From positions 2,240 through 66,239 of the forward strand of contig JAZQMO010000010.1 of NCBI GenBank assembly GCA_045543495.1: DNA of 64,000 nucleotides, given 5' to 3'. Under the pieces are notes generated by a model that saw nothing but the letters and a program-made list of their open reading frames with translations, was not told where the DNA came from and ran no database searches. Both the position numbers and the translations under genes were made by a program. The DNA comes from Eubacteriales bacterium. Lineage in GTDB: Bacteria > Bacillota > Clostridia > Oscillospirales > SIG627. This document shows, one piece after another, positions 2,451 to 62,218 of the stretch. Each line of letters starts with the position of its first letter. Positions within the stretch are counted from its first letter, which is position 1.

Positions 2451-2667
2451 GCTTGATGTGCGTTGAAGCGGGAGGTTGCTGCGCGAAATCGCAGGTTTTT
2501 CCGCAGAGTATGTCCGACAAATCGGGCGAAAGCGAGCGTATGCTGCTTTCTCCGCCTGGGGCCTTGCCTGAGGCGGAGTCGTTTACTGAGAAAGAAAAGA
2601 AACACCCGAGAGCGTATTACGCTTGCGCTTCCCATCAAGCGAGCTGCTTCTCCACAAGGGAGGAGCA
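2451..2667 (+). ncRNA. Structured rpsJ 5' leader (S10-Clostridia-like ribosomal leader)
   Basis: GCTTGATG(2451)/CATCAAGC(2633) closing stem, inner GAAGCG/CGCTTC and CTCCGCCT/AGGCGGAG stems; starts right after the promoter, ~245-nt UTR. Confidence 0.7.
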
Positions 2668-5810: not shown

Positions 5811-6170
5811 ATGAACGAAACGGCAAAGAAAAGAGCCGTGGCACACAGAAACGAAGTCCGGATTTCTCCGAGAAAAGTTCAGATCGTGCTGGACCTCATC
5901 AGAGGAAAAGACGCTGAGCTGGCAAAGGGAATTCTGAAGAACACCACCAAGAGTGCCGCAGAGCCTATTTTGAAACTTTTGAACGAAGCGTGTGCAAACG
6001 CTGAAAACAATTTCCAGATGGACAAGGAAAAGCTTTTTGTTGCTGAGTGCTACGCCACCGCAGGCACCACCCTGAAGCGCATCAGACCCCGCGCACAGGG
6101 CAGAGCATTCCGCATTCTGAAGAGAGCTTCTCACATCACCATCGCAGTAGAAGAGAAAGGAGGAAATTAA
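5811..6170 (+). CDS. rplV: 50S ribosomal protein L22
   Basis: RISPRK, RPRAQGRAFRILKRASHIT. Confidence 0.99.
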   Translation: MNETAKKRAVAHRNEVRISPRKVQIVLDLIRGKDAELAKGILKNTTKSAAEPILKLLNEACANAENNFQMDKEKLFVAECYATAGTTLKRIRPRAQGRAFRILKRASHITIAVEEKGGN

Positions 6171-6173
6171 GAG

Positions 6174-6944
6174 ATGGGACAGAAAGTAAATCCCCACGGC
6201 CTTAGAGTCGGTGTCATCAAGGATTGGGACTCCAGATGGTTTGCTAAGGATGAAGATTTCGGCGACACTCTTGTTTCCGACTACAAGCTTAGAAAGTATC
6301 TGAAGGAAAAGCTGCAGGCTGCAGGCGTTCCCAAGATCGAAATCGAAAGAACCGCTACCAAGGTTCGTGTTACCATTCACTGTGCAAAGCCCGGTATCAT
6401 CATCGGCCGTGGCGGCGCAGAGATCGAAAAGCTCCGTGCAGAGCTTGAGAAGATGCTCGGCAAGTCCGTTGCTGTCAACGTTGCCGAAGTTAAAATGCCC
6501 GATATGAACGCACAGCTCGTTGCCGAGAACATTGCCGGTCAGCTGGAGAGAAGAATTTCCTTCCGCCGTGCCGTAAAGCTTGCCATCGGCAGAACCATGA
6601 GACTGGGCGCACGTGGTATCAAGGTATGCGGCTCCGGCCGTATCGGCGGTGCAGAAATCGCCCGTACCGAGCACTATCACGAGGGTACCATCCCGCTGCA
6701 GACCATTCGTGCCGACATTGACTACGGCTTTGCCGAAGCCAATACCACCTACGGTAAGGTTGGCGTGAAGATCTGGATCTACAGAGGCGAGGTTCTCCAG
6801 ACTGTAAACCGTACCAACCCCAGAAGAAACGATTTCCGTCAGGATCGTCGTCCCCGTGGCGATAGAAAGCCCGGCGACCGCAGAGGCGGGCCTCGTTTCA
6901 ACAATTCTTCCAGAGAAGGAGGACGCAGAAATGTTAATGCCTAA
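6174..6944 (+). CDS. rpsC: 30S ribosomal protein S3
   Basis: [13 protein letters not shown] domain, [10 protein letters not shown]; Arg/Gly-rich tail overlaps rplP start by 14 nt. Confidence 0.99.
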
Positions 6945-21591: not shown

Positions 21592-21705
21592 ATAATCTCC
21601 CTTTCCGCTTGTTATCTTTTTTTCAGTATAGCATAAAGCTATATAAATTGCAACCATTATAAGTTTTCCAAAGCGAAAGAAAGTAGTCTCTTTGCGGATA
21701 CAAAC

Positions 21706-21743
21706 AAAAAGAAAGACACGATGAAAATCGTGTCTTTCTTTTT
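21706..21743 (-). terminator. Terminator directly after tRNA-Thr
   Basis: AAAAAGAAAGACACGAT-GAAA-ATCGTGTCTTTCTTTTT. Confidence 0.85.
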
Positions 21744-21818
21744 GGAGCTAGTGACGTGACTTGAACACGCGACCTGCTGATTACGAATCAGCTGCTCTAC
21801 CAACTGAGCTACACTAGC
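21743..21818 (-). tRNA. tRNA-Thr (anticodon CGU)
   Basis: Minus strand GCTAGTGTAGCTCAGTTGGTAGAGCAGCTGATTCGTAATCAGCAGGTCGCGTGTTCAAGTCACGTCACTAGCTCCA, 76 nt, full cloverleaf with encoded CCA. Confidence 0.97.
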
Positions 21819-22050
21819 ACATATTTAATTTTTGCTTTGCCTATCCCCTTGAAAAAGAGAAAAGCCGTCGCAGCAATCAGCTGCTCTTCCTGTTGCAACA
21901 TCGCCTCTGCCGTCGCCCGCAGGGCTTGGCAATCGCCGTGTTGCTGCCACTCCTTATTGCTCGCTTCATCCGCCCCCGGCGGCGCTCGCAAGCGTCCCCA
22001 ACTGAGCTACACTAGCACATATTTAATTTTTGTTTTGCCTATCCCCTTGA
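21800..22050. repeat. 53-bp direct repeat (21800-21852 and 21998-22050, one mismatch): tRNA 5' end plus its leader
   Basis: CCAACTGAGCTACACTAGCACATATTTAATTTTTG[C/T]TTTGCCTATCCCCTTGA present twice, 198 bp apart. Confidence 0.95.
21875..22016 (-). pseudogene. Truncated tRNA-Thr 5' half with ~108-nt insertion in the D-loop
   Basis: Minus strand: GCTAGTGTAGCTCAGTTGG-[insert]-GAAGAGCAGCTGATT; homology stops at the anticodon. Confidence 0.8.
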
Positions 22051-22103
22051 GAAACGGATCGGCGGTGGCGTTGGAGAAGCTTTGCACTCCAAGGACACCG
22101 CCG

Positions 22104-22132
22104 ATTATACCACAAAGAAAAGAAAAAATCAA
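22104..22132 (-). promoter_or_regulatory. SigA promoter of the tRNA-Thr transcript
   Basis: Minus strand TTGATT-17bp-TATAAT with TG extension. Confidence 0.75.
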
Positions 22133-22136
22133 GTGT

Positions 22137-22577
22137 TCAGAAATCTTTTTTCATTTGTTTATAGGCAAAGAATGTAAAGCCGAGCTTTTTGTATAGACGA
22201 ACAGCCCCTTCATTCTCATCCTCCACCTCCAAACGGAAGCGCTTGGCGCTATCTTTGTATTCCGTTTCCAAGAAGGCAAAGAATTCACTTCCCAGACCAA
22301 GGCCTCTTTTTTCGGGCAAAAGATAGATCTCCTCGATCCAAACAGCCTTCCCCCCCGCCTCCTGAGACCAGGTCTCGGCCAAAAGGGCGTATCCGCATTC
22401 CTCGCCGTCCCGCTCCAGAATATATCCCTTGGCATAAGGATTATCGGTCAGGAGCAGATCAAAGGTTTTTTTCAAATTTTCCTCAGGAACGGGGGACAGC
22501 ACGGCATCGCTTTCATAAAAGGCTTTTGCCATACTCAAATACAGATCGTGATCTTCTTTTCGGATGCTGCGGATCAT
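22137..22577 (-). CDS. GNAT family N-acetyltransferase
   Basis: WIEEIYLLPEKRGLGLGS acetyl-CoA motif, NEGAVRLYKKLGF. Confidence 0.9.
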   Translation of the reverse strand: MIRSIRKEDHDLYLSMAKAFYESDAVLSPVPEENLKKTFDLLLTDNPYAKGYILERDGEECGYALLAETWSQEAGGKAVWIEEIYLLPEKRGLGLGSEFFAFLETEYKDSAKRFRLEVEDENEGAVRLYKKLGFTFFAYKQMKKDF

Positions 22578-61928: not shown

Positions 61929-61959
61929 CTTTTTTTTCATCCTTTGTTATACTGATAAA

Positions 61960-62218
61960 AACCGATGAACAAGAGAAGTAACCCTTCTTCGTCCTTCAAA
62001 GAGAGCCGCCCTTGGTGGAAAAGCGGTAAGGATGGGATTGGTGAATGGCCTTGTGAGGGCGATCCGAACGGGAAACCAAGTAGGTGAGACGGGTCCGACC
62101 GTTACCTCGGCAGTGTATGTCAGTACACAAGCAGTGCGCCCGTCTCGGGCGAATTTGGGTGGTACCGCGGATTTGATTCGCCCCGAACGGTTTTCCGTTC
62201 GGGGCTTTATATTTTTTT
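61960..62218 (+). promoter_or_regulatory. Trp-specific T-box riboswitch with intrinsic terminator
   Basis: Promoter TTGACT-17-TATACT (61925-61953); AGTA and AGAGAG motifs, specifier GAA-TGG (62046-62048), T-box AATTTGGGTGGTACCGCG (62152-62169), terminator GCCCCGAACGG/CCGTTCGGGGC. Confidence 0.93.

Follow-up and report, generated by a model that had tools for sequence, protein, structure and literature searches.

Upstream of the intact tRNA-Thr(CGT) gene in a 64,000-nt stretch of an Oscillospirales genome (the window: assembly GCA_045543495.1, contig JAZQMO010000010.1, positions 2,240 to 66,239) lies a truncated copy of the same tRNA whose D-loop is interrupted by a 109-nt structured element. 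This insert is one member of a widespread family of structured elements in Clostridia that lies outside Rfam. It folds into a three-way junction whose purine-rich joining strands are invariant and whose stems are preserved by compensatory changes. The reading that we favor, with confidence that is about even, is that the element would be a conserved leader module acting at the RNA level, housed in a disarmed 5' copy of the tRNA that follows it, and that the same module may also have spread as a small repeat.

All locus coordinates are window positions, and the unit reads on the minus strand (Table 1). Its tRNA-derived 5' fragment comprises the acceptor 5' strand, the D-stem 5' strand and the D-loop through G18G19; the flank beyond the element supplies the D-stem 3' strand and the 5' strand of the anticodon stem. 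Because the tRNA sequence resumes for 13 exact nucleotides right after the insert, a chance match is ruled out. The five bases GCTGC after AGAGCAGCTGATT close a small hairpin with the preceding GCAGC, and equivalents of this hairpin, which covary with the tRNA allele, also follow the Trp, Pro and Ser copies described below. The intact gene is the sole one for its isoacceptor found in the assembly. A repeat finder recovered the duplication as a 72-nt direct repeat of 88% identity (21800-21871 and 21998-22069) and a 16-nt repeat of 94% identity (21786-21801 and 21875-21890). The layout given in the initial annotation (a split tRNA-Thr copy, an insert, resumption of the tRNA, the leader again and the intact tRNA) proved right to the base. 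The leader duplication is a local extra, since it is absent in the congeners G015 and G014 and since, in a related strain from another metagenome run, six different letters replace 22017-22055, so that no upstream leader copy is present. The core architecture is fragment, insert, fragment, spacer and tRNA, and the first leader copy is peculiar to this genome.

Table 1. Features of the tRNA-Thr(CGT) locus, ordered along the minus strand of the window
Feature	Position	Strand	Details
Putative promoter, sigma-70-like, TTGATT-17-TG-TATAAT	22132-22104	-	Consensus match 10/12, TG present
Leader hairpin just 3' of the promoter	Arms 22105-22087 and 22076-22058	-	19-nt arms, 89% complementary
Leader copy 1, 34 nt, TCAAGGGGATAGGCAAAACAAAAATTAAATATGT	22050-22017	-	Direct repeat
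tRNA-Thr(CGT) 5' fragment, nt 1-19, GCTAGTGTAGCTCAGTTGG	22016-21998	-	Identical to the intact gene at 21818-21800
Structured element, 109 nt	21997-21889	-	Covariance-model match 21888-21999, 101.6 bits, E 1.6e-29
Parts of the element, in order	21997-21889	-	Junction GGGGAC; P2 with tandem G.A; P2a hairpin; junction AAGGAGTGGC; long P3; junction AACAGGA
tRNA-derived 3' flank, A + AGAGCAGCTGATT	21888-21875	-	AGAGCAGCTGATT at 21887-21875 equals tRNA nt 21-33
Small hairpin, GCAGC-TGATT-GCTGC	21884-21870	-	Occupies the place of the anticodon arm; no anticodon loop
Spacer (tail)	21869-21819	-	Pyrimidine-rich stretch and leader copy 2 (21852-21819); low between-species conservation
Intact tRNA-Thr(CGT)	21818-21743	-	ARAGORN; Rfam tRNA 70.7 bits
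Predicted intrinsic terminator after the tRNA	21744-21705	-	18-bp stem, then T run; consensus call

The source assembly (labeled G000; 69 contigs, 1.92 Mb, 93% complete) is repeat-rich, and no single contig of the sequencing runs that we compared spans the whole stretch; both points would suit an assembly artefact or chance similarity. We nevertheless find that explanation hardly credible. Both junctions of the duplication are spanned in Logan contigs, as distinct from raw reads, of two further metagenome runs, which speaks against the misassembly considered in the initial annotation: record 3 of run X1 spans 21908-22066, covering the left junction, and records 27, 28 and 31 of run X3 tile 21793-21905, 21876-21964, and 21943-22016 and onwards. 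This arrangement is found again at three further tRNA loci in this genome and at more than 60 loci in dozens of other genomes.

Comparative analysis defined the fold. RNAalifold predicted 15 pairs from 93 copies, 11 of them with changes on both sides that preserve pairing. With a fixed four-helix core (P2 interrupted by tandem G.A/A.G, the P2a hairpin and the base of P3), 98.6% of the 1127 cells formed by 16 pairs in 71 distinct copies were standard pairs, and 13 of the 16 pairs showed compensatory change. None of 500 column shuffles reached any of these measures, and sliding the pairing partners by 1-3 columns reduced pairing to 24-61%. Little or no variation occurs in the joining strands GGGGAC, AAGGAGTGGC and AACAGGA or at the G.A positions. 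In 93 of 93 copies the sense strand gives a more stable fold than the antisense strand (mean difference 5.9 kcal/mol), which assigns the structure to the strand that is co-transcribed with the tRNA or, in single-stranded form, to that strand of the DNA. Covariation supports three stems drawn from the single sequence in the initial annotation (CGCC/GGCG, GCAACA/TGTTGC and TGCC/GGCA), but for a fourth, CGCTT/AAGCG, the comparative data favor a shifted register in which the outer stem is TTGC/GCAA, tandem G.A/A.G and then GC/GC. Folding the Thr unit as a single sequence gave a z of only -2.0 and proposed a long helix that pairs the tRNA fragment with the 3' flank; a similar GGGG/CCUC pairing can be traced by eye at the Trp loci. 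A helix that closes immediately around the element, scored as a run of at least 4 pairs at an offset of at most 4 nt (a limit that misses the D-stem), was found in 20 of 96 copies, as compared with 27% of shuffled flanks.

To survey the family we used a covariance model built from the 71 distinct copies. It returned 23 matches in this genome. The insert first described at one locus is indeed a small element free of an open reading frame (ORF), and it is repeated. A small ORF within the insert was considered and rejected, since its open frames are short and the same sequence occurs in non-coding contexts. BLAST and a motif scan placed the insert at three other tRNA loci of the genome: Trp(CCA) on contig C35, in the gap that separates tRNA-Met from tRNA-Trp, Pro(CGG) on C61 and Ser(CGA) on C63. 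At each, the initial 18-19 nt of the tRNA come first, then the insert and, shortly after it, the intact gene. In an even sample of the order, the model found the element in 53 of 151 genomes and 19 of 30 families, at 1-22 copies per genome; in a class-wide sample, 31 of 151 genomes carried it, 28 of them outside the order. An exact 21-nt motif matched at least 119 stretches among GTDB species representatives. Among the matches listed, nearly all were labeled as Oscillospiraceae, Acutalibacteraceae, Ruminococcaceae, Clostridia or Eubacteriales metagenome-assembled genomes, and one as 'Bacteroides'.

Members of the family are ~105-118 nt long, and a long variant carries an extra ~125-nt domain, without an ORF, inside the P2a hairpin. 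Sites of the long variant in G000 include C13:4690-4930, C9:3293-3533, C24:20470-20710 and C32:3725-3485; the extra domain holds AAGGAGTG, a hairpin and AGGAAG in an order resembling the element's 3' half, and may be a nested relative. Carriers include the cultured Vescimonas fastidiosa MM35, in which a copy sits within a REP (repetitive extragenic palindrome, see below). A plasmid collection yielded one match, on a chromid-sized Vescimonas replicon, and none was found among 50,697 phage records. A single IMG/VR contig (L208, 4847 nt) has the element within a 135-nt terminal direct repeat, at a repeat spacing of 4608 nt; this contig encodes a CI-like repressor (helix-turn-helix and Peptidase_S24 domains) and a terminase large subunit, and contains two weaker copies of the element. 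A double hairpin akin to the AAGGCTCCCCCGATGGGGGAGCTCCGCCATGGGCGG TGAGAGGGGG repeat family directly precedes the structured element on L208. That repeat family, which has two hairpins, breaks the G000 assembly at many contig ends (C9:54, C30:55, C31:54, C47:56, C64:3188, C44:1758, C38:8511, C68:3814 and C43:4208).

The genomic context was examined for 96 distinct copies from relatives, a sample biased by its retrieval with a single sequence variant. Of these, 72 follow a tRNA D-loop whose last bases are GG (43 Ser-like, 7 other class II, 20 class I and 2 reassigned by eye); 5 have a ten-codon 5' fragment (M-A/P-K-R/K-R-A-N-G-E-G) of a tyrosine integrase gene (PF00589 and PF14659) on one side and the intact start of such a gene on the other, 1 is in the variable loop of a 3' tRNA-Met fragment, and the remaining 18 are in repeats that resemble repetitive extragenic palindromes (REPs) or are otherwise rich in hairpins. 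Other orders also have the element at the variable-loop/T-arm side of 3' tRNA fragments downstream of an intact tRNA (Trp, Arg). The D-loop position described in the initial annotation is thus shared by 72 of the 96 copies, but the element is not specific to D-loops, as the copies in REP loops, 3' tRNA fragments and integrase 5' fragments show. Copies borne in D-loops usually have the intact cognate tRNA (Ser, Trp, Pro, Thr) a short way downstream. Among the 88 copies with enough downstream sequence, 62 repeat their 18-nt 5' flank, mostly 60-75 nt past the element, at the start of the intact gene. Units also form tandem arrays with periods of ~174-217 nt.

In this genome, all four 5'-partial tRNA copies (Thr, Trp, Pro-CGG and Ser-CGA) carry the element, and each lies upstream of the only gene for its isoacceptor; one 3'-partial tRNA-Pro copy has no element. 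At the loci of relatives, in a sample chosen for having the element, it is present in 71 of 76 upstream 5' fragments and absent from the other 5. The link that had been drawn between the element and a 5'-side duplication is therefore tight, but with fragments that lack the element on record, it is no more than a candidate cause of the duplication. The upstream fragment may be a tRNA-Ser allele other than that of the intact gene (L082, L135), which indicates that some arrays were built by successive arrivals of foreign DNA. Separately, tRNA-Ser (CGA/TGA) 5' fragments that extend through the anticodon loop form arrays free of the element (L104, L135, L092, L136, L170 and L171). In these, a ~150-nt spacer with a terminator-like hairpin follows each fragment, the period is 181-196 nt, and successive fragments are different alleles, a pattern suggestive of repeated replacement of the gene's 5' portion.

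About 18 variant copies in this genome occupy the loop of a GC-rich palindrome (GGGCCGTCG...CGTCGGCCCCTAC), often in short arrays and at contig ends, and unoccupied palindromes (GGGCCGTCGAGGACGTCGGCCCC) stand beside occupied ones. The host palindrome is a REP: it has the GTAG motif, and inverted copies (GTAGGGGCCGACG...) flank an ORF for a Y1 transposase that resembles REP-associated tyrosine transposases (RAYTs), at C24:~5960-6460. The REP/RAYT region extends over C24:5480-7221 (locus L194); REP copies are on C9, C13, C24, C66, C51 and C47, and the palindrome is scattered in arrays with related spacers of ~64 nt.

The unit is conserved in place between species. Synteny of the Met-Trp locus extends over five congeners and one genome from another family, and mean pairwise identity among the five congeners is 0.99 for the intact tRNA, 0.96 for the 5' fragment, 0.82 for the element and 0.98 for the 3' fragment with its hairpin, whereas outside the unit it is 0.41 for the spacer before and 0.37 for the tail after. 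Among these orthologues one P2 pair appears as G-C, C-G or A-T, and the P2a stem occurs in four sequences, all of which pair. At the Pro loci, the 3' strand of the small hairpin tracks the tRNA allele (GCTGC/GCAGC versus GCCGCG/CGCGGC). Because a dead insertion or a dead fragment should decay as the spacers do, and the unit does not, a functional unit is a better fit than the scar of an insertion. Gene conversion from the neighboring tRNA could maintain the flanks, but it cannot explain the strand of the hairpin that is not tRNA-derived or the compensatory changes.

Position relative to predicted transcription signals suggests how such a unit would be expressed. At the Thr, Pro and Ser loci, the sole same-strand sigma-70-like site is located upstream of the fragment and scores 10, 12 and 10 of 12 consensus matches, with TG in all three. 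A consensus scan for same-strand terminator-like sites between promoter and intact tRNA found none at these three loci and found one following each tRNA; the Trp unit sits within the Met-Trp tRNA pair. Since the promoter of the tRNA lies on one side of the unit and the intact tRNA on the other, transcription most likely makes the unit the 5' leader of the tRNA precursor, from which RNase P would most likely release it. In such a leader the order would be the 5' strand of the tRNA up to G18G19 of the D-loop, the element in place of the rest of the D-loop, the D-stem 3' strand and a tight hairpin, with the folded strand being the one predicted to be transcribed with the tRNA.

We infer from this arrangement that the leader-borne module works as RNA. 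It could be a domain that binds a protein or processes itself, or it could supply a decoy acceptor 5' strand that influences how the downstream tRNA matures. The second acceptor 5' strand might compete for the 3' end of that tRNA. Orphan RNA motifs and small self-cleaving ribozymes such as twister, hatchet and pistol are found near integrases and phage genes. The element resembles the small ribozymes in size, in a junction-centered core with variable stems, in having several copies per genome and in its proximity to integrases and mobile DNA, but it matches none of their Rfam models, and cleavage is a candidate activity only. Its junction-centered conservation, tandem G.A motifs and proximity to integrases could be those of a protein-binding domain or of a small ribozyme. 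It also recalls engineered tRNA scaffolds and natural tRNA-like structures, in which a structured RNA is grafted in a tRNA arm and decoding is removed; unlike those, most units here keep only the 5' third of the tRNA and would form no full L-shape. A bolder proposal, which we put forward tentatively and think rather unlikely, would make the unit an RNA gene of a new kind. In it, a three-way junction that is catalytic or recruits a protein, set in a disarmed tRNA 5' third and borne in the leader of the precursor of that tRNA, would control or mark how the cognate tRNA matures, perhaps by self-cleavage or by presenting the tRNA 3' end with a second acceptor 5' strand. In the favored reading, the module has also multiplied in the manner of a small non-autonomous repeat, occupying REP loops and other gene fragments left at integration sites.

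Several observations weigh against the leader-module reading. Only 35% of sampled genomes of the order carry any copy, and only 4 of 18 congeners (G000, G014, G015 and G018) have the Thr-locus unit, a patchiness that suits a dispensable or selfish element; in the other congeners, a homologous promoter stands directly before a single tRNA, or the neighborhood is different. No tRNA part accompanies the copies in REPs and integrase fragments, so not every copy can have a tRNA-specific role, and filled and empty REP hairpins, nested long variants and copy numbers of 1-22 resemble mobility. Conservation of the flanks could in part reflect conversion by the adjacent tRNA, and that of the element could reflect conversion between paralogous copies. 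Subtypes of the distal hairpin are shuffled among loci, and this hairpin differs between orthologous Thr copies, suggesting exchange between copies. The promoter and terminator calls are consensus matches only, and one metatranscriptome run (X16) covered the tRNA alone, in contigs that cannot give RNA level or ends.

The element belongs to none of the families against which it was tested. Rfam 15, run on the whole window at the gathering threshold, reported only a T-box, tRNA and an S10 leader; when 21650-22200 was searched at E ≤ 10, the highest-scoring family to overlap the insert was gntR-DTE at 14.1 bits, against a gathering score of 63.6; and at 12 loci of this genome with copies nothing fell on the element at E ≤ 0.1. 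Group I and group II introns, twister, hammerhead, pistol, hatchet and all other Rfam families were set aside for lack of a match, and the initial view that the system is undescribed agrees with the result for Rfam 15. The conserved tRNA-fragment architecture is unusual, and full-text literature searches reached no description of it or of the element; the supplementary tables of a gut RNA catalogue (PMC8040213), which hold thousands of candidate gut RNA structures, may list the motif.

Among mobile DNA, the nearest comparisons are with miniature inverted-repeat transposable elements (MITEs) and palindrome-associated transposable elements (PATEs) of IS200/IS605, and with REP/REPIN-RAYT systems. 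Like a MITE or PATE, the element is small, ORF-free and folded on one strand, and it may have inserted after GG without a clear target duplication. Unlike them, its hairpins are dissimilar (P2/P2a does not resemble P3, where a PATE has similar subterminal hairpins and a cognate Y1 transposase, TnpA), no matching autonomous insertion sequence was found, the association with Y1 is weak, its junction nucleotides are invariant across the whole class and orthologous copies are conserved. Empty sites at REPs are precise and 5' flanks end in GG, but tRNA copies usually lack T20 and their boundaries are ambiguous by 2-3 nt. The element shares with REP/REPIN and RAYT a multi-copy, non-coding, hairpin-based organization, with ~18 copies in REP loops here; the host hairpin is itself a REP, but the element has no GTAG, is a three-way junction and not a simple palindrome, and also occurs in tRNA fragments and in genomes without a detected Y1 transposase. 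As regards a TnpB guide RNA, this genome has no PF07282 match and no ORF stands beside the copies, IscB not having been searched separately; as regards the RNA of a retroelement (group II intron, retron or diversity-generating retroelement), it has no PF00078 match. Three resolvase-domain genes that might have encoded an IS607-type serine transposase are large serine recombinases (528-577 aa), in a row at C61:18295-25166. In sum, the closest analogy for how the element works is an orphan structured RNA that is at the same time a small nested repeat.

Partial tRNA gene copies have been described as pervasive in prokaryotes, and the passages on tRNA gene fragments in that report treat them only as by-products of integration or CRISPR (PMC9897764). 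Our loci share with att-site remnants the tRNA fragment beside an intact gene and, at some loci, a nearby tyrosine integrase (as on C35, by tRNA-Trp). They differ in that the 5' part is the usual one and lies upstream, the D-loop holds an element, a hairpin replaces the anticodon arm and the whole is conserved between species. Fragment and gene are separated by a tail of ~50-70 nt (range 34-85 nt) with no integrated element in between, and only some loci have an integrase next to them.

The main rival explanation, possible but on balance doubtful, is a selfish, non-autonomous DNA element of MITE or PATE type that inserts after a run of G in the exposed hairpin loops of single-stranded DNA. The tRNA fragment would be a pre-existing remnant and the fold would serve a transposase in trans; since insertion into a working tRNA gene would be lethal, survivors would be seen only in dead tRNA fragments, REPs and other junk. 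The variable copy number and patchy distribution, the nesting and the long variant, and the presence or absence of the Thr unit among congeners fit this account, as do clean filled and empty REP pairs (GTCGAGG-ACGTCGG versus GTCGAGG-element-AC(C)GTCGG), the GG that ends every 5' flank, the shared orientation of tRNA-linked copies and their host tRNA, the existence of 5' tRNA fragments without the element, and three IS200-like tnpA genes together with RAYT-like genes and REPs in this genome. However, the cognate transposase was not found, and the IS200-like copies here have unrelated ends. Y1 transposase genes were present in 21 of 53 element-bearing genomes versus 26 of 98 that lack it, and genomes with 6-10 copies have none, a co-occurrence so weak that the Y1 transposase was rejected as mobilizer; neither TnpB nor a reverse transcriptase was found in this genome at its 93% completeness. 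The dissimilar hairpins are unfit for IS200/IS605 ends, every one of the four 5' tRNA fragments here is occupied, and the usual lack of T20 means that insertion was not clean. Orthologous copies remain intact and compensated while their flanks decay to ~0.4 identity, where a dead insertion should decay alike.

We judge it improbable that the units are miniature cassettes of ~195-205 nt (element, tail and tRNA 5' fragment) that integrate as small circles, site-specifically, at the D-loop GG, with the element as a folded recombination site for a tyrosine recombinase in the manner of integron attC. Each integration would push the old 5' fragment upstream and rebuild an intact tRNA, and a crossover directly after TTGG would, by reasoning, give the exact order of 5' fragment, element, nt 21-35, tail and intact tRNA. 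The periodic tandem arrays, the foreign tRNA-Ser alleles, the 5 of 96 copies directly upstream of tyrosine integrase genes, the terminal repeat of the 4.8-kb IMG/VR contig and the strand-specific fold would all be accommodated. Yet most copies have no linked recombinase, no circular form was seen, and conservation in place argues against rapid turnover; nt 21-35 are cognate to each tRNA, so a universal cassette cannot explain the colonization of new tRNA types. The high sequence conservation is also unlike attC, whose folded strand has the inverse core RYYYAAC at its 5' end and the core GTTRRRY at its 3' end, whereas the element ends in ACGTTTGC...GCAACAGG, with GTT before AAC on either strand; for IntI, the integrase of such sites, no search was made. 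Still less probable, to the point of being scarcely tenable, is an intron-like RNA spliced from the D-loop. The insert does lie inside tRNA-derived sequence, the D-stem could close around it and its structure is strong, but at all four loci here and in relatives the host copy ends in the anticodon stem; without an anticodon loop, T-arm and 3' acceptor strand, no splicing could yield a tRNA, and this truncation contradicts the intron-like RNA suggested in the initial annotation. Bacterial group I tRNA introns are of ~200 nt or more, have P1-P9 and interrupt an otherwise complete tRNA gene, usually in the anticodon loop, while the element has 109 nt and its host lacks nt ~36-76. In addition, an intact cognate tRNA is always adjacent, Rfam gives no group I or II signature, and the same element occurs in REPs and integrase leaders.

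If the element acts as RNA, it would be a widespread structured class of gut Clostridia outside Rfam, present in about a third of the sampled genomes of the order and in further orders, and could reveal control of individual tRNAs (Ser-CGA, Thr-CGT, Pro-CGG and Trp) or a new ribozyme or protein-binding fold. A leader module with a regulatory role would represent a previously unseen layer of tRNA-specific regulation in these bacteria. If it is a selfish repeat, it would show that small elements survive inside dead copies of essential genes and inside other repeats such as REPs, and it would also account for odd 'pseudo-tRNA' annotation calls. Either way, the covariance model offers an immediate handle for annotation, and the cultured carrier makes experiments feasible.

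Other features of the genome were recorded alongside. The IS200-like tnpA-only elements, which have their own hairpin ends, are at C40:122-478, C24:19807-20163 and C45:31131-31487, and a fourth Y1-family gene (261-aa ORF) at C52:15139-15471 is flanked by CAGGGGACGGTTCTGT repeats. In the window, a T-box leader (61956-62188, plus strand, 111 bits) and an S10-Clostridia ribosomal protein leader (2454-2529, plus strand, 48.5 bits) both exceed their Rfam gathering scores. Elsewhere in G000, at C47:~1403-1581 (L019), two adjacent and opposed matches to Gut-1 RNA (RF01706) score 54.4 and 37.4 bits.

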